Shown: piece by piece, positions 2,849 to 24,494 of the stretch
Layout: each line of letters opens with the position of its first letter
Position numbering within the stretch: the stretch's first letter is position 1
DNA from: Erysipelotrichaceae bacterium
Lineage (GTDB): Bacteria; Bacillota_I; Bacilli_A; Erysipelotrichales; Coprobacillaceae
NCBI GenBank assembly: GCA_028698185.1
Contig: JAQVDW010000005.1
Location: forward strand, 1-32,000
Length of the DNA stretch: 32,000 nt
Reading direction: 5' to 3'
Translations under genes and position numbers: made by a program
Notes under the pieces: generated by a model
What the model was told of the DNA's origin: nothing
Databases searched by the model: none
The model's input: the letters and a program-made list of their open reading frames with translations, nothing else

Positions 2849-3577
2849 ATGAAAATTATAAAAGTAGACAATTACAACGAAGCAAGTGCCAAGGCCTTTG
2901 AGGTGTTCAAAAACCAGATAATCACCCAGCCGGAGTCGATTTTGGGGTTGGCAACCGGATCGACACCAAGAAAGCTTTATGAGATGATGATCGAAGACCA
3001 TCAGACAAACGGGACCAGCTACAAGCAGGTCAAGACATTCAATCTCGATGAGTACGTCGGACTGGACGGAGCCGATGAACAGTCATATGAGTACTTCATG
3101 AATCATAATCTTTTCGACCATATCGATATCGACAAACAAAATACCCATGTTCCTTCAGGGATTGGGGATATCGCCAAAAACATCGCTGATTACAACCAAA
3201 TGCTCAAGGACAATCCCATTGATTTGCAGCTGCTGGGAATCGGTTCGAATGGCCATATCGGTTTTAACGAACCGGGGACAGCCAAAGACAGCGTGACCAG
3301 CCTGGTTGATTTGAAGCAGTCGACAATCGATGACAATGCGCGTCTGTTCTTCGGTGGCGACGTTACCAAGGTTCCAACTCAGGCAATCTCAATGGGTATC
3401 GCCAATATCCTGGCGGCCAAGAAGATCGTTCTGATCGCCTGTGGTCAAAACAAGGCCGATGCGATCAAGACCCTGATCGAGGGGAAAGAGTCGTCTGAGT
3501 GCCCGGCAAGTTTCCTGCAATCGCATCCAGATGTGACTGTGATCATCGACAAGGAAGCGGCAAGCGCCTTGAAATAA
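2849..3577 (+). CDS. nagB: glucosamine-6-phosphate deaminase
   Basis: LGLATGSTP and LLGIGSNGHIGFNEPG motifs; start moved to ATG 2849 because GGAGG sits at 2836-2840 (track ORF starts at 2786). Confidence 0.92.
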   Translation: MKIIKVDNYNEASAKAFEVFKNQIITQPESILGLATGSTPRKLYEMMIEDHQTNGTSYKQVKTFNLDEYVGLDGADEQSYEYFMNHNLFDHIDIDKQNTHVPSGIGDIAKNIADYNQMLKDNPIDLQLLGIGSNGHIGFNEPGTAKDSVTSLVDLKQSTIDDNARLFFGGDVTKVPTQAISMGIANILAAKKIVLIACGQNKADAIKTLIEGKESSECPASFLQSHPDVTVIIDKEAASALK

Positions 3578-14323: not shown

Positions 14324-14408
14324 TGGTGCGGCAGACCGGACTTGAACCGACACGGAATAATCCATAAGTCCCTCAAACTTACGTGTATACCAATTTCACC
14401 ACTGCCGC
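14324..14408 (-). tRNA. tRNA-Leu(GAG)
   Basis: Acceptor GCGGCAG/CTGCCGC, anticodon stem TAAGT/ACTTA, loop TTGAGGG, long variable arm, encoded CCA. Confidence 0.9.
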
Positions 14409-14978: not shown

Positions 14979-15053
14979 GGTTCCATAGCCAAGTTGGTAA
15001 GGCAGCAGACTGCAACTCTGCGATCGTCGGTTCAAGTCCGGCTGGAACCTCCA
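14979..15053 (+). tRNA. tRNA-Cys(GCA)
   Basis: Anticodon stem GCAGA/TCTGC, loop CTGCAAC, discriminator T73, encoded CCA. Confidence 0.92.
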
Positions 15054-15058
15054 TTAAT

Positions 15059-15147
15059 GCCCAGGTGGCGAAATTGGTAGACGCACAGGACTTAAAATCC
15101 TGCGGACCTTAAAATCCGTGACGGTTCGACTCCGTCCCTGGGCACCA
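15059..15147 (+). tRNA. tRNA-Leu(UAA)
   Basis: Stem CAGGA/TCCTG, loop CTTAAAA, long variable arm, CCA. Confidence 0.92.
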
Positions 15148-15162
15148 TTTCAAAAAATAGTG

Positions 15163-15191
15163 TTGACAAATCGAAAACTCTGTGTTAAGAT
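15163..15191 (+). promoter_or_regulatory. internal promoter P3 inside the tRNA array
   Basis: TTGACA - 17 nt - TAAGAT, between tRNA-Leu(UAA) and tRNA-Arg. Confidence 0.6.
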
Positions 15192-15207
15192 ACGTAAGCA
15201 TTCTTAA

Positions 15208-15284
15208 GCGCTAGTAGCTCAATAGGATAGAGTACTTGGCTACGGACCAAGAGGTTATGGGTTCGATTCCTGTCTAGCGCGCCA
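15208..15284 (+). tRNA. tRNA-Arg(ACG)
   Basis: Stem CTTGG/CCAAG, loop CTACGGA, CCA. Confidence 0.92.
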
Positions 15285-15287
15285 GTA

Positions 15288-15364
15288 CGGGAAGTAGCAC
15301 AGCTTGGTAGTGCACCTGGTTTGGGACCAGGGGGTCGCAGGTTCAAATCCTGTCTTCCCGACCA
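15288..15364 (+). tRNA. tRNA-Pro(UGG)
   Basis: Stem CCTGG/CCAGG, loop TTTGGGA, CCA. Confidence 0.92.
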
Positions 15365-15379
15365 TTTAAAAAACAATTT

Positions 15380-15455
15380 GGGGCCTTAGCTCAGCTGGGA
15401 GAGCACCTGCCTTGCACGCAGGGGGTCAACGGTTCGATCCCGTTAGGCTCCACCA
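15380..15455 (+). tRNA. tRNA-Ala(UGC)
   Basis: GGGGCCT acceptor with G3:U70, loop CTTGCAC, CCA. Confidence 0.92.
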
Positions 15456-15475
15456 AATTTATTTTTCACCCTTAT

Positions 15476-15552
15476 GGCGGGGTAGCTCAGTTGGCTAGAG
15501 CAATCGGTTCATACCCGGTGGGTCGGGGGTTCGAATCCCTTCCCCGCTACCA
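15476..15552 (+). tRNA. tRNA-Met(CAU), elongator type
   Basis: Loop TTCATAC; GGCGGGG acceptor; lacks initiator features. Confidence 0.8.
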
Positions 15553-15585
15553 ATTAAGCTAAATAGCTGTATCAATATTTAAAGC

Positions 15586-15678
15586 GGAGGTTTACCCAAG
15601 TCCGGCTGAAGGGATCGGTCTTGAAAACCGACAGGCGGGGAAACTCGCGCGGGGGTTCGAATCCCTCAACCTCCGCCA
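15586..15678 (+). tRNA. tRNA-Ser(UGA)
   Basis: Stem TCGGT/ACCGA, loop CTTGAAA, long variable arm, CCA. Confidence 0.92.
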
Positions 15679-15714
15679 TTTTTTCTTAAAGCATCAATAA
15701 AGCATCACTATTAT

Positions 15715-15791
<77 letters not shown>

Positions 15792-15796
15792 AATTT

Positions 15797-15873
15797 GGTC
15801 TGGTAGTTCAGTTGGTTAGAATGCCGCCCTGTCACGGCGGAGGTCGCGGGTTCGAGTCCCGTCCAGACCGCCA
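15797..15873 (+). tRNA. tRNA-Asp(GUC)
   Basis: Stem CCGCC/GGCGG, loop CTGTCAC, CCA. Confidence 0.92.
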
Positions 15874-15878
15874 ATTTT

Positions 15879-15954
15879 GGTTCCATAGCTCAGTCGGTAG
15901 AGCAAAGGATTGAAAATCCTTGTGTCGCTGGTTCGATTCCGGCTGGAACCACCA
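15879..15954 (+). tRNA. tRNA-Phe(GAA)
   Basis: Stem AAGGA/TCCTT, loop TTGAAAA, CCA. Confidence 0.92.
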
Positions 15955-15971
15955 TTTTTCATAAGTATTAT

Positions 15972-16048
15972 GCGCTAGTAGCTCAATAGGATAGAGTACT
16001 TGGCTACGGACCAAGAGGTTATGGGTTCGATTCCTGTCTAGCGCGCCA
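15972..16048 (+). tRNA. tRNA-Arg(ACG), copy 2
   Basis: Identical to 15208-15284. Confidence 0.92.
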
Positions 16049-16051
16049 GTT

Positions 16052-16128
16052 CGGGAAGTAGCACAGCTTGGTAGTGCACCTGGTTTGGGACCAGGGGGTC
16101 GCAGGTTCAAATCCTGTCTTCCCGACCA
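16052..16128 (+). tRNA. tRNA-Pro(UGG), copy 2
   Basis: Identical to 15288-15364. Confidence 0.92.
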
Positions 16129-16143
16129 TTTAAAAAACAATTT

Positions 16144-16219
16144 GGGGCCTTAGCTCAGCTGGGAGAGCACCTGCCTTGCACGCAGGGGGTCAACGGTTCG
16201 ATCCCGTTAGGCTCCACCA
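16144..16219 (+). tRNA. tRNA-Ala(UGC), copy 2
   Basis: Identical to 15380-15455. Confidence 0.92.
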
Positions 16220-16246
16220 AATTTAAAATAATGATCCTATAAAGAT

Positions 16247-16323
16247 GGCGGGGTAGCTCAGTTGGCTAGAGCAATCGGTTCATACCCGGTGGGTCGGGGG
16301 TTCGAATCCCTTCCCCGCTACCA
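16247..16323 (+). tRNA. tRNA-Met(CAU) elongator, copy 2
   Basis: Identical to 15476-15552. Confidence 0.8.
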
Positions 16324-16327
16324 TAAT

Positions 16328-16404
16328 GGACCCTTAGCTCAGTTGGTTAGAGCTATCGGCTCATAACCGATCGGTCGTTGGTTCGAGTCCAACAGGGTCC
16401 ACCA
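16328..16404 (+). tRNA. CAU-anticodon tRNA, probably tRNA-Ile2 (lysidine-modified)
   Basis: GGACCCT acceptor, loop CTCATAA, perfect T arm GTTGG/CCAAC. Overall resemblance to Bacillus-type tRNA-Ile(CAU) is from memory. Present only in the second repeat unit. Confidence 0.65.
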
Positions 16405-16427
16405 TATCATTATTTGTTTCATAAAGC

Positions 16428-16520
16428 GGAGGTTTACCCAAGTCCGGCTGAAGGGATCGGTCTTGAAAACCGACAGGCGGGGAAACTCGCGCGGGGGTTC
16501 GAATCCCTCAACCTCCGCCA
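16428..16520 (+). tRNA. tRNA-Ser(UGA), copy 2
   Basis: Identical to 15586-15678. Confidence 0.92.
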
Positions 16521-16556
16521 TTTTTTCTTAAAGCATCAATAAAGCATCACTATTAT

Positions 16557-16633
<77 letters not shown>

Positions 16634-16638
16634 AATTT

Positions 16639-16715
16639 GGTCTGGTAGTTCAGTTGGTTAGAATGCCGCCCTGTCACGGCGGAGGTCGCGGGTTCGAGTC
16701 CCGTCCAGACCGCCA
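16639..16715 (+). tRNA. tRNA-Asp(GUC), copy 2
   Basis: Identical to 15797-15873. Confidence 0.92.
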
Positions 16716-16720
16716 ATTTT

Positions 16721-16796
16721 GGTTCCATAGCTCAGTCGGTAGAGCAAAGGATTGAAAATCCTTGTGTCGCTGGTTCGATTCCGGCTGGAACCACCA
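16721..16796 (+). tRNA. tRNA-Phe(GAA), copy 2
   Basis: Identical to 15879-15954. Confidence 0.92.
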
Positions 16797-16879: not shown

Positions 16880-17263
16880 ATGTTCAAATATCGCGAAATT
16901 CGGATGTTGCTTGTGACGTCACTGATTTTTATAATGGTAAACGGGTTGGTTGTCTATGCCTTGGTCAATAAAAACAAGATGCAGATTGCCCTGGGTCTGA
17001 TTATGTCTTTCTCTTCGCTGCTGTTGCTGGCGACCCGCTACAAGATGGCGGTTTTCAACGACTCGGTCATGGTCTATGAATTCAAGGGCGTAGCCATTTT
17101 GCCGGTCCTGATCGAGTTTGACAAGATTGAAAGGCTCGAGCTTGTGGGCAAACACCGCTTGAACATCGTCCATGGCACCACCACCAAGGTCTATATTGTC
17201 GATGCGACCAGGTTCATCGATGAGATCGAACTGTCACGCAAGGTCTACAAAGGTCTAAAATAG
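16880..17263 (+). CDS. hypothetical small membrane protein (2 N-terminal TM segments plus soluble C-terminal domain)
   Basis: AGGAGG RBS; hydrophobic MLLVTSLIFIMVNGLVVYALV and IALGLIMSFSSLLLLA; no family recognised. Confidence 0.6.
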   Translation: MFKYREIRMLLVTSLIFIMVNGLVVYALVNKNKMQIALGLIMSFSSLLLLATRYKMAVFNDSVMVYEFKGVAILPVLIEFDKIERLELVGKHRLNIVHGTTTKVYIVDATRFIDEIELSRKVYKGLK

Positions 17264-17374
17264 CCGGCGATAATTAGGCTTAGTCTAAATCGGATAAGAT
17301 TATTTCATTTTTTACAAATAATTCTTTATTTTGTTTTGGGCTTGTGTTAATATATGGAAAACGAGGTGGTCGCT

Positions 17375-17425
17375 ATGAGAAATAATCCAAACTTACAATT
17401 GAATCACCATCACCATTGGATCTAA
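17375..17425 (+). CDS. predicted his operon leader peptide MRNNPNLQLNHHHHWI
   Basis: GAGGTGG RBS at 17363-17369, ATG 17375, four consecutive His codons CAC CAT CAC CAT at 17405-17416, TAA at 17423; lies directly upstream of attenuator hairpins and hisZ. Confidence 0.65.
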   Translation: MRNNPNLQLNHHHHWI

Positions 17426-17427
17426 CT

Positions 17428-17461
17428 GGGCTATTATCTTAAATGATACAGCCCTTTTATT
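17428..17461 (+). terminator. his leader hairpin 1:2 with U-rich tail (first terminator or pause)
   Basis: GGGCT..TATC / GATA.AGCCC followed by TTTTATT. Confidence 0.5.
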
Positions 17462-17486
17462 GGTTGTATCTAATGGCGTTTATCTG

Positions 17487-17516
17487 CGGGTCATTAGAAA
17501 TAATGGCTCGTTTTTT
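17487..17516 (+). terminator. his leader terminator (attenuator)
   Basis: 10 bp stem CGGGTCATTA-GAAA-TAATGGCTCG followed by T6, 5 nt before the hisZ RBS AAGGAGG. Confidence 0.8.
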
Positions 17517-17533
17517 AATATAAGGAGGCAATT

Positions 17534-18502
17534 ATGGAATTTTATAAATATTTGATACCTGAGGAGAGCATCGACGTGCGCATCGACAATGTTGCGACAT
17601 TGCGCAAAATCGAAGGCAAACTCCGGGAAACTTTCACGAAAAACAACTACAACGAAGTGCTGATGCCAAGTTTCGACTATGTGGAACTGTACACCCAGAT
17701 CGGCTGCGACATCCCTTCATCGAACATGTTCCGCTTTGTCGATTCCAAAGGAAAAAATGTGGCGCTGCGTTACGATTTCACAATCCCTTTGGCAAGACTG
17801 TACGCAACCAAATACCACGATACTACGTCACGGTTCTGTTACTTCGGGAAGGTCTACCGCAAGGAAAAGGTGCACAAGGGACGTTCTTCGGAATTGTTCC
17901 AGGCCGGAGTCGAGTTGATCAATGAACCGGGTGTTAGAGGCGAACAGGAAATCCTGGCAATGCTTCAGGAAACAGTGAGCAACATCCCTCTCAATGACAT
18001 TCTGATCGAATTCGGTTCGGCGGCTTTTCTAGACCGGCTATTTGAAATCACCGATGACGATGCTAGGTTGCAGGAAATCCTGAAATACCGCAGTGTATCC
18101 CAGCTTAAGGAGTTCATCAAGGAACACGATTTCGACGAAAAGTTCAGTCGTCTTCTTTTGAAGCTGCCTAGCGCCATAGGCGGGACAAAGATGCTTGATG
18201 AAATCTGCGAACTTGTCGATGACAAGATCCTGCTGGACACCCTGATCGATCTCAAATGCCTGATCATCAACCTGGAAGGGACATACAACTACCAATTCGA
18301 TTTGGGAATGGTTCCTGAAATCGACTACTATACCGGACTTATGATCAAGGGTTACACCAAAAATGCGGCCAAACCGATCATCACCGGGGGACGTTATGAC
18401 AAACTGCTGCCAAAATTCGACGCCGATGTCAGCGCGGTCGGTTTTTGCTGCCACCTGAATTACGTTTTGGAAGCTTTGGCGATGGAGGAAAACAATGATT
18501 AA
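17534..18502 (+). CDS. hisZ: ATP phosphoribosyltransferase regulatory subunit (HisRS paralogue)
   Basis: 322 aa class-II aaRS-like fold with no anticodon-binding domain; directly precedes and overlaps a short-form hisG. Confidence 0.85.
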
Positions 18503-19121
18503 GATTGCGATAACCAAGGGCCGGATTGAAAAACAGGTCTGCAAGATGCTTGAAAAGGCAGGCTACGATCTCGAGCCGGTGTACAATAAAAAAAGAGAAC
18601 TGATGATTACTACTGACGACGGGCTGCAGTTCATCTTCGGCAAGGCCAACGACGTCGTGACGTTCCTCGAGCACGGGATTGTCGATATCGGATTTGTGGG
18701 CAAGGATACCCTCGATGACAATGATTTTGACGACTACTACGAGCTGCTTGATTTGCAGATCGGGAAGTGTTTCTTTGCCGTTGCGGCCTATCCCGAGTAT
18801 GCGACGAAAAATTTCAAAAACCGCAAACGGATTGCTTCAAAATACACCAATGTTGCCAAAAAATACTTCGAAAGCAAAAAAGAGGATGTGGAAATCATCA
18901 AGCTTGAAGGTTCGGTCGAGCTAGGTCCGATCGTCAATCTTTCCGATGCCATTGTCGACATCGTCGAAACAGGTTCGACCCTCAAAGCCAACGGGCTTGA
19001 AGTGATCGAGAAAATAAGCGAGATTTCGACCCGGCTGATCGCCAACAAGGTGAATTTCAAATACAACAAGACGGAAATAATCGACCTGGTGAACAGGCTC
19101 GAACAGGTAGTGGAGGAATAG
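18495..19121 (+). CDS. hisG: ATP phosphoribosyltransferase, short form
   Basis: 208 aa; [11 protein letters not shown]-terminus and [14 protein letters not shown] motif. Confidence 0.92.
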
Positions 19122-19124
19122 GGA

Positions 19125-20420
19125 ATGCTCAAGACGATTAACTATCAAGGCGATCTCGAAACGATCGTTGAAAAACTGAATACCCGCAAAACTTCAATCT
19201 CTAAGGAAGTCAGCGACAAGGTTCTAACTGTCCTGGAGGACATCGCCGCAAACAAAGATGCGGCCGTGATGAAATACTGCGAGATGTTCGACGGTTTCAA
19301 GGTGGCAAAGCCGGATGACCTGATCGCCACCGAGGCGGAAATCGAAGAGGGTTACAGCCAGGTGGATGCGGATTACATCCGCATCCTGCAACGCAGCTAC
19401 GACCAGATCAAGATGTACCATGAAAATCAGATCGACAAATCATGGGCGATGTACAAGGAAGATGGGGTCATCCTCGGCCAGATGATCCGCCCGATTGAAA
19501 GGGTGGCATTGTATGTGCCTGGGGGAACAGCGACATATCCTTCGACCGTTTTGATGAACGCCGTACCGGCGATTCTTGCGGGAGTCAAGGAAATCGTGAT
19601 CATCACCCCAGTCAAGAGCGATGGCAAAGTCAATCCGGTCATCATGGCGGCTGCAAAGGTATGCGGAATCAAGACAATCTACAAAGTCGGCGGGGCCCAA
19701 GGGGTCGGTGCGGTTGCCTACGGTACCCAAACCATCAAAAAAGTCGACAAGATTGTCGGACCGGGAAATATCTTCGTTGCCACTGCCAAAAAACTTGTAT
19801 ATGGAACGGTTGACATCGACATGGTTGCCGGTCCTAGTGAGATCCTGATCATCGCCGACGAAAATGCCAATCCAAAATATATCGCGGCTGATCTGATGTC
19901 CCAAAGCGAACATGACAGACTTGCCAGCGCGATCCTGGTCACTCCCGAAGCGAGCCTGATCGAAAAGGTCAACGCCGAGCTGGACCGCCAGATCCAATAT
20001 CTGTCACGTCCGGAAATCATCAAGGAATCATTGGAAAACTACGGCGGGGCGATTGTTGTTTCATCGTTGGATGAAGCCTTCACTGTCTCGAACTATCTGG
20101 CACCGGAACATTTGGAAGTGCTGGTGGGCGATCCGCTCAACACCCTGCCAAAAATCCAGAATGCCGGATCGATCTTCCTGGGTGAATACACGCCCGAACC
20201 TCTAGGCGACTACATGTCGGGAACCAATCACGTGCTGCCAACCGGTGGAACTGCGAAATTCTACAGCCCGCTTGGCGTATACGACTATGTAAAAGCATCG
20301 GCTTATTCATACTATCCAAAAGCGGCTCTTGCCACATTCAAGGATGACGTCGAAAAATTTGCCAAATCCGAAGGGCTTGATGCCCATGCCAATTCAATCA
20401 CTGTAAGATTCGAGGACTGA
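19125..20420 (+). CDS. hisD: histidinol dehydrogenase
   Basis: 431 aa; AGPSE, SQSEHD and NHVLPTGGTA motifs. Confidence 0.95.
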   Translation: MLKTINYQGDLETIVEKLNTRKTSISKEVSDKVLTVLEDIAANKDAAVMKYCEMFDGFKVAKPDDLIATEAEIEEGYSQVDADYIRILQRSYDQIKMYHENQIDKSWAMYKEDGVILGQMIRPIERVALYVPGGTATYPSTVLMNAVPAILAGVKEIVIITPVKSDGKVNPVIMAAAKVCGIKTIYKVGGAQGVGAVAYGTQTIKKVDKIVGPGNIFVATAKKLVYGTVDIDMVAGPSEILIIADENANPKYIAADLMSQSEHDRLASAILVTPEASLIEKVNAELDRQIQYLSRPEIIKESLENYGGAIVVSSLDEAFTVSNYLAPEHLEVLVGDPLNTLPKIQNAGSIFLGEYTPEPLGDYMSGTNHVLPTGGTAKFYSPLGVYDYVKASAYSYYPKAALATFKDDVEKFAKSEGLDAHANSITVRFED

Positions 20421-20424
20421 TACC

Positions 20425-21012
20425 ATGCGCCAGGGAAAAATTAACCGTGAGACTTTAGAAACTAAACTGAATATCGCCATTGACCTTGATGGTCAGGGAA
20501 AAACGAAGATCGATACCAAAATCGGATTTTTCGACCACATGCTTACCCTTTTTGGATTCCATGGCGGGTTCGATCTTGAGGTTTTCTGCGATGGAGACAT
20601 CGAGGTCGACAGCCACCACTCAATCGAGGATGTGGGTATAGCGCTCGGGCTGGCTTTCAAGGAAGCCTTGGGCGACAAATTGGGCATCAACCGTTATGGC
20701 AGCTTCCGCCTGGTCATGGATGAGGCGCTGGTATGTGTCGATCTCGACATTTCCAACCGCCCTTACCTCGTGTTCAATGGCGAGATTCCCAAGGTGGTTT
20801 TGGGCAATTTCGATTGCGAGATGACCGAGGAGTTCCTGCGGGCTTTCGCCTTCAATGCGGGAATAACCCTGCATGTCAACGTCATGTACGGCAAGAATGT
20901 GCACCATATCATCGAGGCCATCTTCAAGGCCTTGGCTAGGGCGTTGCAACTTGCAACGGCCATCGATCCAAGCAAGGTCGACAAGGTGAGTTCCACCAAA
21001 GGAATGTTATAA
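20425..21012 (+). CDS. hisB: imidazoleglycerol-phosphate dehydratase (monofunctional)
   Basis: 195 aa; FFDHML, HHSIED and HHIIEA metal-binding motifs. Confidence 0.95.
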   Translation: MRQGKINRETLETKLNIAIDLDGQGKTKIDTKIGFFDHMLTLFGFHGGFDLEVFCDGDIEVDSHHSIEDVGIALGLAFKEALGDKLGINRYGSFRLVMDEALVCVDLDISNRPYLVFNGEIPKVVLGNFDCEMTEEFLRAFAFNAGITLHVNVMYGKNVHHIIEAIFKALARALQLATAIDPSKVDKVSSTKGML

Positions 21013-21023
21013 GGAGGACAATT

Positions 21024-21632
21024 ATGGTTGTTATAATAGATTATAATGTCGGCAATCTTTCAAGCGTTGCCGGAGCCTTGAAACGGGTCGGAATCGATGC
21101 GATCGTGACCCGCGACAAGGAAACTATCGAACAGGCCCAGGCGATAATTTTGCCGGGGGTCGGTTCGTTCCCGGTGGCTATGGCCAACCTTGAAAAATAT
21201 GGTCTGATCGAAACTCTGACCAGCTGCAAGGAAAAAGGAACAATCATCATGGGCATCTGCCTGGGGATGCAGGTCCTTTTCGAGATGGGATACGAAGTCA
21301 GACCGACCAAGGGGCTAGGATTCATCCCGGGAAAAGTCGAATATATGGATATCGATGAGAAAATCCCGCACATGGGATGGAATGAGCTTTACTTCAACCA
21401 AATCCATCCGATCCTGAAATATATCGAAGAAAATGAGGATGTATACTACGTCCATTCATACCAGGCGGTTACCGATGATGAAAACATCATCGCCTACAGC
21501 ATGTATGGAACGGCTAAGATTCCCGGCATTGTCGGCAAGGACAATGTCATCGGATGCCAGTTCCACCCGGAAAAAAGCGGGGCCGTGGGCGAAAACATTT
21601 TAAAGGCATTTAAGGAGATGATCGAATGTTAG
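21024..21632 (+). CDS. hisH: imidazole glycerol phosphate synthase, glutaminase subunit
   Basis: GICLGMQ nucleophile elbow, QFHPEKS. Confidence 0.95.
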   Translation: MVVIIDYNVGNLSSVAGALKRVGIDAIVTRDKETIEQAQAIILPGVGSFPVAMANLEKYGLIETLTSCKEKGTIIMGICLGMQVLFEMGYEVRPTKGLGFIPGKVEYMDIDEKIPHMGWNELYFNQIHPILKYIEENEDVYYVHSYQAVTDDENIIAYSMYGTAKIPGIVGKDNVIGCQFHPEKSGAVGENILKAFKEMIEC

Positions 21633-22351
21633 TGATACCAGCGATAGATTTGAAAGACGGACAGGCAATCCGCCTGTACAAAGGTGATTACAACCAGAAG
21701 ACGGTATATTCATCTAATCCCGAAGAAATTGCGGCCAAATTCAGCGAAATGGGAGCCGACTATCTCCATGTGGTTGATCTTGACGGAGCCAAGGACGGTT
21801 TTGGCATCAATACCGAAGTGATCAGAAAGATCAAGGAAAACACCGACCTGCCAATTGAACTAGGAGGCGGAATCCGCAACCTGGAGACGGTGAAGATGTA
21901 TCTTGATGATGTCAAGGTCGACCGGGTCATCCTCGGAACCGCAGCCCTCAAAGACCGTGCCTTTTTGAAGGCGGCAATCGAACAATACGGACCGGAAAAG
22001 ATTGTGGTCGGGGTCGATGTGAAAAACGGCTATGTCTCAACCCAGGGATGGCTCGACACATCCGACGTCCATTTCCTGGATTTCATCAAGGAACTCGATG
22101 AGCTTGGGGTGAAGTACATTGTCGCGACGGACATTTCCAAAGATGGAACCCTTCAGGGACCAAACTTTGAGATGTACCAGCAGATCAGGGACAATTCGCC
22201 AATCAATTTCGTGGTCAGCGGCGGGATTTCTTCCAACGAGGACATCCTGAAAGTTGCCAGCCACGATTATTACGGTTGCATCATCGGAAAGGCCTACTAT
22301 GAAGGCAAAGTCGATATCAAAGAGGTGGTAGCATGCTTAAAAAAAGGATAA
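21626..22351 (+). CDS. hisA: ProFAR isomerase
   Basis: [10 protein letters not shown]-terminus, (beta/alpha)8 HisA pattern, GGGIR. Confidence 0.93.
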
Positions 22352-23094
22352 TCCCATGTCTTGATATCAAGGACGGTAAGGTTGTAAAAGGTGTCAACTT
22401 CGTCGGACTCAAGGAAGTCGGAGACCCGGTTGAACTAGCCAAACGCTATGACCTTCAATGTGCCGATGAGGTCGTGTTTCTCGATATCACCGCATCCTAT
22501 GAGGATCGTGGCATCATCCGGGATCTGATTGCCAAGGCTGCCAGCGAACTGTCAATCCCGTTGGCAGTCGGCGGCGGAATCCGCACGATCGACGATTTCC
22601 GGATGATCCTGGCGTCGGGAGCCGACAAGGTTTCAGTCAACTCGGCGGCAATCGCCAATCCCGATCTGATCAAACAGGCCAGCGATGAATTCGGTGTCCA
22701 ATGCGTGGTCATCGCCATCGATGCCAAAAAGAACGACCAGGGCCGCTATGATGTCTATGTCAAGGGTGGCCGGGAAAACACCGGACTTGACCTGGTCGAG
22801 TGGGTGAAAAAATGCGAGAGCCTTGGGGCGGGTGAAGTCCTGTTGACATCGATGGATGCCGACGGAACACGAGCAGGATTCGATATCGACATGCTCAACG
22901 CAGTATGCGAGGTTGTCAACATCCCGGTTATCGCTTCAGGAGGCTGTGGCAGCGTCCAGGACATTGTCGATGTGTTCGAGAAGACCAATGTCGATGCGGC
23001 CCTGGTCGCTTCCCTGTTCCATTTCAATGAAGCGACAGTCGAGGATGTCCGAAATGAACTTACCAAAAACAATATTCACGTAAGGAGGGTCTAA
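22333..23094 (+). CDS. hisF: imidazole glycerol phosphate synthase, cyclase subunit
   Basis: [27 protein letters not shown] motifs. Confidence 0.95.
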
Positions 23095-23095
23095 G

Positions 23096-23737
23096 ATGCG
23101 CCCAGATTTTACCAAGATGGATCTGATCCCGGCAATTGTCCAGGATTATAAAACCAAACAAGTACTGATGCTTGCCTATGTCAATGAGGAAGCATACGAT
23201 AAGATGCTCGAGCTAAACGAGACTGTTTTCTATTCAAGAAGCCGCAACAATCTTTGGCACAAAGGCGAAGAAAGCGGCCATTTCCAGAAAATCAAAGGGA
23301 TGTATCTTGACTGCGACTCAGACACCCTGTTGATTTTTGTCGACCAGATCGGAGGAAGCGCCTGCCATACGGGAGCATATTCATGCTTCTTCAATGAAGT
23401 ACAAGCCTTCGATGATACGAACATCTTCGTCGAGCTCGAAAAATCAATCAGCGACCGGGCAATCAATCCGGTGGAAAAATCTTACACCAACTACCTGCTA
23501 AACGAAGGGGTTGACAAGATCGCCAAAAAAGTCGGAGAGGAAGCGGCGGAAACAATCATTGCGGCCAAAAACTCCGACAAGTCTGAGCTTATCGGGGAGA
23601 TCGGGGATCTGATCTACCATGTTTTCGTCCTGATGCAAAATCAGGGAATCACCTTGAAGGAAGTCGAGAACAAGCTCAAGGAACGTCACAAGATCACCGG
23701 CAACAAGAAGCAGTTCAACACACGGGGCGACTACTAA
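23096..23737 (+). CDS. hisIE: bifunctional phosphoribosyl-AMP cyclohydrolase / phosphoribosyl-ATP pyrophosphatase
   Basis: HisI N-terminal half (LIPAIVQD, CHTG) fused to a HisE C-terminal half (EEAAETIIA, DLIYH). Confidence 0.93.
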   Translation: MRPDFTKMDLIPAIVQDYKTKQVLMLAYVNEEAYDKMLELNETVFYSRSRNNLWHKGEESGHFQKIKGMYLDCDSDTLLIFVDQIGGSACHTGAYSCFFNEVQAFDDTNIFVELEKSISDRAINPVEKSYTNYLLNEGVDKIAKKVGEEAAETIIAAKNSDKSELIGEIGDLIYHVFVLMQNQGITLKEVENKLKERHKITGNKKQFNTRGDY

Positions 23738-23738
23738 G

Positions 23739-24494
23739 ATGTATGTCGACTGCCATGTCCACACCCATCACTCGTTCGATTCTTCCCAGGCTCCCGAGCC
23801 CTACATCATCAAGGCGATCGAGATGGGAATGGACGAGATTTGTTTCACGGACCACCACGATTTCAATTATCCAGTCGACAATTTCGAACTCAACGTCGTT
23901 GACTACTTCTTGGAACTAAAGGAGCTTCAAAAGAACTACCAGGACAAGATCAAGATCAAAGTCGGAGTCGAAATCGGCCTTGATCTCGATTATGTCGATG
24001 AAATCAACCAGTTCATCAAGTCGAGTCCGTTCGAATTTGTGATCGGATCAATCCATGTCATCGACCATACCGAATTCTACTATGGTGAGTTTTTCAAGGG
24101 CCTGACCAAGGACGAGGCCCATCACAAATATTTCACGGCCGTTTTGGAATGTGTCAAGAAGTTCGACTGTTTCGACGTTCTCGGGCACCTTGACTACATT
24201 TCCCGTTATGGACCATACCAAGACAAGAGTATCGATTACGCCAAGCACCAGGAGGTGATCGAACAGATTTTCACGGCCCTGATCCACAAGAACAAGGGCA
24301 TCGAGCTCAATACCTCGGGTTATCGCACCTGCAACCATCCTTTTCCGGATTTCGATCTCGCGCAACGTTTTTACGATATGGGCGGACGGGTTGTCACTGT
24401 CGGCTCGGATTCCCATTCGACCGCGACCCTGGGGGCCAATAACCGGGAAGTGATCGACAGGCTCGAAAAAATAGGTTTTTCAATCCGGCAATAA
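23739..24494 (+). CDS. hisK: histidinol-phosphatase, PHP family (HisJ/HisK type)
   Basis: DCHVHTHHSFD PHP metal motif; last gene of the his operon. Confidence 0.85.
   Translation: MYVDCHVHTHHSFDSSQAPEPYIIKAIEMGMDEICFTDHHDFNYPVDNFELNVVDYFLELKELQKNYQDKIKIKVGVEIGLDLDYVDEINQFIKSSPFEFVIGSIHVIDHTEFYYGEFFKGLTKDEAHHKYFTAVLECVKKFDCFDVLGHLDYISRYGPYQDKSIDYAKHQEVIEQIFTALIHKNKGIELNTSGYRTCNHPFPDFDLAQRFYDMGGRVVTVGSDSHSTATLGANNREVIDRLEKIGFSIRQ

Follow-up and report, generated by a model that had tools for sequence, protein, structure and literature searches.

The his operon and its leader

The window (the whole stretch of DNA analysed, 32,000 nt) comes from an uncultured Coprobacillaceae lineage and carries a his operon at 17534..24494 on the + strand, consisting of hisZ-hisG-hisD-hisB-hisH-hisA-hisF-hisIE plus a gene for a PHP-type (HisJ/K-type) histidinol phosphatase. 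Gene identities were assigned with NCBIfam, which confirmed hisZ, G, D, B, H, A, F, and IE and a HisJ/K-type phosphatase, as expected from an earlier note on this DNA that had read the operon as hisZGDBHAFIE-hisK; hisC is absent by the same identification. The hisZ start codon is ATG 17534, and its ribosome-binding site (RBS), AAGGAGG (17522..17528, + strand; from the sequence), lies outside every conserved helix. In a protein search, the closest HisZ homologues were annotated as Thomasclavelia, Coprobacillus, Massilimicrobiota, and Erysipelotrichaceae. Directly 5′ of hisZ, the first gene of the operon, lies the element analysed here, in which the earlier note had placed a promoter, a small open reading frame (ORF), a hairpin, alternative pairings, and a terminator ahead of the hisZ RBS; all were found where it had put them.

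A TG-extended −10 promoter element, TGTTAATAT (17345..17353, + strand), was recognised from the sequence, and transcription probably starts at about 17360. A two-hexamer promoter scan of the spacer returned no + strand promoter and no −35 match. With a lenient pattern, 40 of 41 loci have a TGnTAnnnT-type element 21-24 nt 5′ of the leader ATG; in locus L014 the distance is 33 nt. The leader ORF (17375..17425, + strand) has 16 codons plus TAA, running from ATG 17375 through fifteen more codons to TAA 17423, and encodes the peptide MRNNPNLQLNHHHHWI; homologous mini-ORFs are found in relatives. Its Shine-Dalgarno sequence (SD) is GAGGTGG (17363..17369, + strand), and a GAGGTG-like SD stands 6-8 nt ahead of the ATG in 41 loci. 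Four consecutive His codons, CAC CAT CAC CAT (17405..17416, + strand), form the presumed sensing site; the run is kept in relatives and is followed directly in the window by the Trp codon TGG 17417. Four CAY codons in a row (CAYCAYCAYCAY) occur 2 times in the 32 kb, against 0.08 expected.

Distribution and conservation

The hisZ loci were surveyed using one genome per species, which gave 47 loci. The best survey locus belongs to a Coprobacillaceae metagenome-assembled genome (HisZ identity, 97%), and its leader is identical to that of the window across 121 aligned nt. HisZ identity to the window's protein was 44-82% for the remaining Erysipelotrichales loci and 28-32% for five distant Clostridia loci (L042-L046). 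The element was found upstream of hisZ in 42/42 Coprobacillaceae loci with upstream sequence, as one copy per locus and in every case on the hisZ strand; among the sampled genomes, it is confined to Coprobacillaceae.

The earlier note had made its reading depend on conservation of the mini-ORF and its His run, and both are conserved, with an intact SD-ATG mini-ORF of 15-20 codons in 41 loci of 42 (16-18 codons in 39 of these). Across the 41 loci, the peptides share the C-terminal pattern ..Q[LF]H(H/R)HH(H)W.., in which the His run spans 4 positions in 28 loci, 5 in 11, and 3 in 2; Arg replaces one position of the run in six loci. In the related loci, the run is followed by an invariant Trp, 1-2 variable codons, and the stop. 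The N-terminal residues vary freely, while SD, ATG, frame, length, and His run are kept in all 41. In L041, the His run is out of frame with the SD-proximal ATG; because the hisZ match of this locus is fragmented as well, an assembly error is the probable cause. Locus L026 has the element ~560 nt 5′ of hisZ, where the covariance model alone detected it.

The 36 relatives behind this covariance model (R1) include Thomasclavelia cocleata DSM 1551 and T. spiroformis; the window and its nearest relative were excluded. The model gave a single match in the window (17393-17517, + strand; 67.2 bits; E 1.2e-13) and no match in the Clostridia loci L042-L046. The window is the most divergent branch of the locus set (67 bits versus 100-143 for the others). 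At gathering score, Rfam matches in the whole window were limited to tRNAs and a fragment of 5S rRNA; at E<=10 with permissive filters, positions 17200-17600 gave a lone weak match (sroB; E 8.4), which is at chance level. Neither the T-box (RF00230) nor His_leader (RF00514) was matched at gathering score in the window or at E<=10 in 17200-17600, which agrees with the earlier note in seeing no T-box here. An Rfam scan of eight related loci, L042-L046 and L026 among them, likewise found no T-box.

Conserved segments and helices

The alignment has six near-invariant blocks (A, B, C, D1-D2, E, and F), between which five conserved helices are possible: A:D2, B:C, C:D1, D2:E, and E:F. Segment A (CCAUUGGAU; 17413..17421, + strand; RNAfold minimum free energy [MFE] structure and RNAalifold) takes in the last part of the His run, the Trp codon that never varies, and 2 further nt, and pairs with D2; from these folds, we infer that it acts as an anti-antiterminator strand. 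Segment B (GGGCUAUUAUC; 17428..17438, + strand; folds and pair counts) is the 5′ arm of hairpin B:C, and segment C (GAUACAGCCC; 17445..17454, + strand; pair counts) is either the 3′ arm of that hairpin or the partner of D1. The U-tract after the hairpin (17455..17458, + strand; T61-T63 invariant in alignments A2 and A3) belongs to no helix and, by analogy, may be a hairpin-dependent RNA polymerase pause signal. Segment D1 (GGUUGUAUC; 17462..17470, + strand; pair counts) is the alternative partner of C. Segment D2 (AUCUAAUGGC; 17468..17477, + strand; folds and alignment) is the switch strand, with A as its partner in the terminating state and E in the antiterminator. Segment E (GUCAUUAGA; 17490..17498, + strand; pair counts) is the top of the 5′ arm of the intrinsic terminator E:F (17486..17516, + strand; terminator scan and alignment). 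For this terminator, the location and T6 agreed with the earlier note; the stem has 11 pairs (17486-17511) where the note gave 10 bp (17487-17510). The stem is closed by a GAAA loop and carries its T6 at 17511-17516, and the terminator ends 18 nt ahead of hisZ.

In the window, B:C pairs GGGCTATTATC with GATACAGCCC (17428-38/17445-54) and is followed by TTTT. The alternative C:D1 is GATACAGCC:GGTTGTATC (17445-53/17462-70), and D2:E is CTAATGGC:GTCATTAG (17470-77/17490-97). RNAfold also returned A:D2, in which CCAUUGGAU (17413-21) pairs with AUCUAAUGG (17468-76) and encloses B:C. RNAalifold, run on 36 relatives without the window, recovered A:D2, B:C, and E:F independently. The leader folded with z = −3.26 relative to dinucleotide-preserving shuffles.

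The block consensus sequences are UCAUUGGA for A (17413-21; last His codons and Trp), GGGUUAUAUC for B (17428-38), GAUACAGCCC followed by AUUUU for C (17445-54), GGGUGUAUC-UAAUGAC for D1-D2 (17462-77), GUCAUUAG for E (17490-98), and GACUCG plus the U-tract for F (17505-16). Block A (UCAUUGGA) is nearly a copy of block E (UCAUUAG), and each is complementary to D2; competition between them for this strand explains why the Trp codon never varies and why the last His codon is always CAU. A role of the peptide itself, functional or as an arrest peptide, was considered as the reason for the conserved Trp and Gln-Leu/Phe residues and was rejected, since the Trp is accounted for by CAU-UGG being invariant as nucleotides and complementary to D2. 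Separately, a conserved ACAAUU block was noted; it lies outside the reach of the D2-complementarity explanation.

Pairing statistics and folding

Pairs were counted in 38 aligned sequences, with partners slid by 1-3 columns as the control. The terminating state was 96.7% paired, versus 31-44% with slid partners. The mutually exclusive helices A:D2, D2:E, and E:F were 92-100% paired across the 38 sequences: 8 of the 9 pairs of A:D2 were kept in 36-38 of 38 sequences, D2:E was 98.9% paired, and the core stem of E:F was 100% paired. For B:C, 98.8% of cells were paired, and for C:D1, 88.3%, with one position usually mismatched or bulged.

The earlier note had looked to covariation for support of its helices, and this was obtained for part of them. 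B:C covaries at its closing pair (UA14/AU12/GU4; RNAalifold, 36 relatives), and E:F shows compensatory changes, with GC/AU at three pairs in the 38 sequences and GC19/AU13 and GC34/AU2 in the 36 relatives. In the antiterminator state (C:D1 + D2:E), covariation was not significant in the shuffle control, so that what speaks for these two helices is their conservation; both vary only by wobble-compatible single changes. Because A, D2, and E are almost invariant, the support for A:D2 and D2:E consists of conservation and wobble-compatible single changes rather than compensatory double changes. At the wobble position of the penultimate His codon, the base varies together with its partner in D2 (UA27, UG6, CG3, and 2 breaks in 38 sequences), and the variation within D2 is entirely compatible with wobble pairing to both A and E. 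For roughly half of the relatives, pairing of D2 with E takes up no more than the uppermost 3-4 pairs of the terminator stem. CAUUAG of E serves only as the terminator loop in about half of the sequences and yet stays conserved there; it is therefore retained for pairing with D2.

Unmasked full-length leaders folded with A:D2 in 31/38 sequences and with the terminator in 38/38. When the leaders ended before F and a ribosome-sized mask was laid on the last His codon, D2:E formed in 31/38; C:D1 was present in 14/38 masked folds. A comparison of masked and unmasked folds had been proposed in the earlier note; at full length, the masked MFE structure retained the terminator in 37/38 sequences. An equilibrium switch was rejected on this ground, the masked full-length folds not having swapped terminator for antiterminator, and antitermination must thus be kinetic.

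Window energies were −24.2 kcal/mol for A:D2 with its extension plus B:C, −9.9 kcal/mol for D2:E, and −13.5 kcal/mol for E:F. With no ribosome and before F, the A:D2 state of the window was favoured over a forced D2:E by 2.6 kcal/mol. Folding the complete 5′ leader of the window with the mask gave a long-range pairing between the SD region and 17474-17489 that beat D2:E by 1.9-3.4 kcal/mol; we regard this predicted pairing as an artefact because the SD region would be under translation and the pairing looked specific to the window.

Proposed mechanism and alternatives

We are highly confident that the element attenuates transcription of the his operon by a ribosome-mediated (leader-peptide) mechanism and belongs to a family found upstream of hisZ in every Coprobacillaceae locus examined. 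The earlier note had proposed the same class, which would sense histidine through the charging of tRNA-His; the negative T-box and His_leader searches and the computed family-wide conservation of the SD-led mini-ORF, His run, and terminator support it. In the proposed mechanism, transcription would begin near 17360, with immediate translation of the leader, and RNA polymerase may pause after B:C and the U-tract with the ribosome held close behind. With charged tRNA-His plentiful, the ribosome would clear the His codons, terminate at UAA 17423, and leave; the free segment A (17413-21) would then pair with D2 (17468-76), stacked around B:C. With D2 locked in this way, the E:F terminator would form, and transcription would stop at the T6 tract. 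A ribosome at the stop codon would also mask A and part of B, so that termination under histidine-replete conditions would need fast ribosome release.

With tRNA-His uncharged, the ribosome would stall with a His codon in its A site and its footprint over segment A; if the ribosome shields about −12 to +15 nt relative to its P site, at least 17413-17417 would be covered at each of the four His codons. With A masked, D2 would stay free and pair with E (17490-98) once E emerges, and C:D1 may stack on the D2:E helix. The upper 5′ arm of the terminator would thus be sequestered, allowing read-through into hisZGDBHAF(IE) and the phosphatase gene. In this scheme, it is A:D2 that would make the switch depend on ribosome position.

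The wiring given in the earlier note differs: the stalled ribosome would cover B (17428-38), C would be freed to pair with D1, D2:E would be favoured, and the His and Trp codons would have no role in pairing. All the helices that it lists exist (B:C, C:D1, and D2:E are present with conserved pairing potential), C:D1 does form in those 14/38 masked folds, and a ribosome stalled on the last His codon touches the 5′ edge of B. Segment B, however, starts 12 nt past the last His codon, so that stalls on His codons 1-3 leave it uncovered and B:C intact. Toggling between B:C and C:D1 alone also leaves D2 free in both conditions; D2 is free despite B:C, and the antiterminator would be unblocked when histidine is plentiful. 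Lacking A:D2, which was returned by both RNAfold and RNAalifold, this wiring is therefore incomplete, and it leaves the invariant UGG, the final CAU, and the A/E mimicry unexplained. In the window, moreover, B:C + D2:E (−21.0 kcal/mol) is more stable than C:D1 + D2:E (−17.6 kcal/mol). We consider this wiring unlikely.

A smaller probability still, and a very low one, is given to a trans-acting factor that sets the switch, either uncharged tRNA-His bound by a divergent T-box-like RNA or a histidine-responsive RNA-binding protein, with the mini-ORF incidental. Translation of the leader is itself a prediction, and other Erysipelotrichaceae have T-box-controlled his operons (PMC9413887), but the T-box went unmatched at E<=10 in 17200-17600, at gathering score window-wide, and in the eight related loci, and a leader of ~155 nt is too short to hold stem I together with a specifier loop and the T-box core. 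The retention of SD, ATG, frame, length, and His run in 41 loci while other codons drift is, furthermore, a pattern unexpected of an untranslated RNA. AT-rich intergenic DNA often contains short ORFs and AU-rich complementary stretches, and several of the helices show little true covariation, but an unregulated spacer with a leaky terminator, in which the small ORF and alternative pairings arose by chance, is extremely improbable given an element present in 42/42 loci across HisZ proteins of only 44-56% identity to the window's, a covariance-model match at E 1e-13, a four-His-codon run expected 0.08 times per window, and a fold z-score of −3.26.

Comparison with known systems

T-box and HisR systems are the usual control of his genes in Firmicutes. 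Ashniev et al. 2022 (BMC Genomics 23 Suppl 6:558, PMC9413887) searched Firmicutes his operons without HisR and T-box and described candidate RNA attenuators, which they called novel, whose leader peptides contain three to five His codons and which have attenuator, terminator, and antiterminator hairpins. Their candidates (Additional file 6C) include six Erysipelotrichales species, namely, Catenibacterium mitsuokai, Coprobacillus cateniformis, Eggerthia catenaformis, Erysipelatoclostridium ramosum, [Clostridium] cocleatum DSM 1551, and [C.] spiroforme, and further His attenuator candidates were reported in the Bacillus cereus group and five Eubacteriales species. In the same study, RF00514 detected nothing in Firmicutes, HisR was missing from all 20 Erysipelotrichales genomes analysed, and T-box control of the his operon was assigned to other Erysipelotrichaceae. 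A His leader peptide 5′ of hisZ in bacilli was reported by Naville and Gautheret 2010 (PMC2965389). Our literature search found no experimental test of any of these candidates.

The Erysipelotrichales candidates of PMC9413887 occupy the same site as the window element, directly 5′ of a hisZ-led his operon in the same order of bacteria, and, as far as the source describes them, have the same build (a short SD-led ORF in which 3-5 codons specify His, together with an attenuator hairpin and a terminator that has an alternative antiterminator). By computation, the window has the corresponding position, ORF with RBS and His run, terminator, and mutually exclusive pairings. One published strain, [Clostridium] cocleatum/Thomasclavelia cocleata DSM 1551, is also survey locus L005. 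The window differs from these candidates in belonging to an uncultured Coprobacillaceae lineage absent from PMC9413887, in having one codon, not two, between Trp and stop, and in an operon without hisC and with a PHP-type phosphatase at its end. By its sequence features, the window element is a further member of this already predicted Erysipelotrichales family and is typical of its lineage. The earlier note had called such a sensor unusual for the lineage; this view did not hold, since the element is in every comparable Coprobacillaceae locus examined and was published as a candidate in 2022 (PMC9413887), and the host is a member of the Coprobacillaceae/Erysipelotrichales and not of the T-box-using Lactobacillales type. 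What the present analysis appears to add is the A:D2 helix and the A/E mimicry, the comparison with PMC9413887 being by its description, without its Erysipelotrichales alignment. Conceptual novelty is small because both the class of mechanism and its presence in the order have already been published.

The Peptostreptococcaceae/Lutispora and Bacillus cereus group candidates (PMC9413887, PMC2965389) are also Firmicutes leader-peptide attenuators 5′ of hisZ. When the T. glycolicus and L. thermophila leaders were folded from the machine-read supplement of PMC9413887, CAUCAUAG (the His codons and stop) paired with CUAUGAUG, which lies immediately ahead of the terminator. These pairings enclose inner hairpins, giving the machine-read sequences the same architecture as A:D2 of the window, a likeness that does not decide between homology and convergence. 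The GAUACAAGCCC-U-rich block of Peptostreptococcaceae-type leaders resembles segment C; their pairing uses the stop codon UAG where the window uses the Trp codon, and the terminators differ. We would put at about even odds the broader proposal that the sensing codons (UCAUUGGA) are themselves the anti-antiterminator, rivalling UCAUUAG for UCUAAUGA across a his-pause-like hairpin, in a design common to Erysipelotrichia and Clostridia through sharing or transfer.

The window resembles enterobacterial hisL (RF00514) in coupling translation of a His-rich leader to the choice between antiterminator and terminator, and in both, the sensing codons lie within the most 5′ pairing segment. The E. coli/Salmonella his leader has an early hairpin and a U-rich tract at the classic his pause, as does the window. 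The RF00514 search at E<=10 showed no sequence or structural similarity between the two. The window has four His codons against seven in E. coli hisL, its segment A pairs with a distal strand across an enclosed hairpin where hisL forms an adjacent A:B, C:D, E:F ladder, and its regulated genes begin with hisZ, a gene that enterobacteria lack. With the His-specific T-box (RF00230), the window shares control of the his operon, a choice between terminator and antiterminator, and the sensing of tRNA-His charging, but the T-box senses uncharged tRNA directly, without translation, and the window leader is too short for one.

Implications

The 2022 prediction for six species is extended here to all 42/42 Coprobacillaceae loci examined. 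Rfam has no family for the element, and the alignment and covariance model made here could seed one, leading to better annotation. The refined helix model, in which the His/Trp codons pair with the switch strand and are mimicked by the terminator arm, allows precise and cheap mutational tests. If the proposal is true and confirmed by experiment, the element would, within the literature searched, be one of the earliest cases of amino-acid leader-peptide attenuation demonstrated in gut commensals of the Bacillota. For the Coprobacillaceae, a common gut family, histidine biosynthesis is most likely controlled by translation-coupled attenuation and not by a T-box or HisR.

Two blocks of the his leader, the predicted His leader-peptide element upstream of hisZ, are nearly invariant in the alignment of Coprobacillaceae leaders (A2), and neither falls within any of the five helices (A:D2, B:C, C:D1, D2:E, and the terminator E:F). 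ACAAUU (window positions 17396-17401; A2 columns 3-8) lies immediately 5′ of the His run and provides Gln-Leu/Phe codons. The other block is a U-tract 3′ of hairpin B:C (17455-17458; A2 columns 68-72), which may be a pause signal. In the minimum free energy structure of the free leader, the Shine-Dalgarno region GAGGUGGUCG (17363-17372) was paired with the His-codon region AUCACCAUCACC (17404-17413). By analogy with trpL, this pairing could restrict leader translation to the first ribosome; alternatively, it could be a by-product of the CACC within the CAC-CAU codons.

The related Coprobacillaceae locus L040 (2844-2987) has a degenerate attenuator, with the His run reduced to His-Arg-His, the customary stop TAG replaced by GAG (extending the leader peptide to 20 amino acids), UCAAAUGG as the switch strand D2, and a shortened E (the top of the terminator 5′ arm); it nonetheless scored 100 bits against the covariance model built from 36 relatives without the window. 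In two relatives, the non-coding spacer from attenuator to hisZ was ~560 nt (L026, region 138-838) or ~130 nt (L006, region 2868-3000), against ~20 nt in other loci. These long spacers may hold another regulatory element or the remains of an insertion; L026 had no match in Rfam at the gathering score. In L041 (CP139560.1, 2790-2982), the SD-proximal leader ATG and the His run are in different frames, and hisZ was matched in pieces (best segment, 61%; weak E-value); both features are more suggestive of sequencing errors at homopolymers than of a biological difference.

The window operon (17534-24494) comprised hisZGDBHAF(IE) and a PHP-type histidinol phosphatase gene and was missing hisC, whereas the six published Erysipelotrichales his operons are given as hisZGDCBHAF(IE) (Ashniev et al. 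2022, PMC9413887). It is followed 3′ by genes for a cation-efflux protein and two GH1 glycosidases. Immediately 5′ of the leader is an ORF of 127 amino acids (16880-17263, plus strand) without a match in Pfam or NCBIfam. No terminator was detected between this ORF and the leader, so transcripts from the ORF could possibly continue into the leader.

Nineteen tRNA genes, none of them tRNA-His, are arrayed immediately 5′ of the his region (14979-16796, plus strand; also 14324-14408, minus strand). The block Arg-Pro-Ala-Met-Ser-Met-Asp-Phe (15208-15954) recurs at 15972-16796 with one additional tRNA-Met, and model scores were equal between the paired tRNA copies of the two blocks. The window starts with the 3′ part of a 5S rRNA (1-96).

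Among Clostridia-class His leaders, those of T. glycolicus and L. thermophila (PMC9413887, Additional file 6B; machine-read text) fold the His codons and stop, CAUCAUAG, onto CUAUGAUG, which adjoins the terminator. As machine-read, both also contain a block, GAUACAAGCCC-U-rich, that is similar to segment C of the Coprobacillaceae element. Together, the pairing of His codons and stop with CUAUGAUG and the GAUACAAGCCC-U-rich block suggest that these leaders and the Coprobacillaceae element have a common design.
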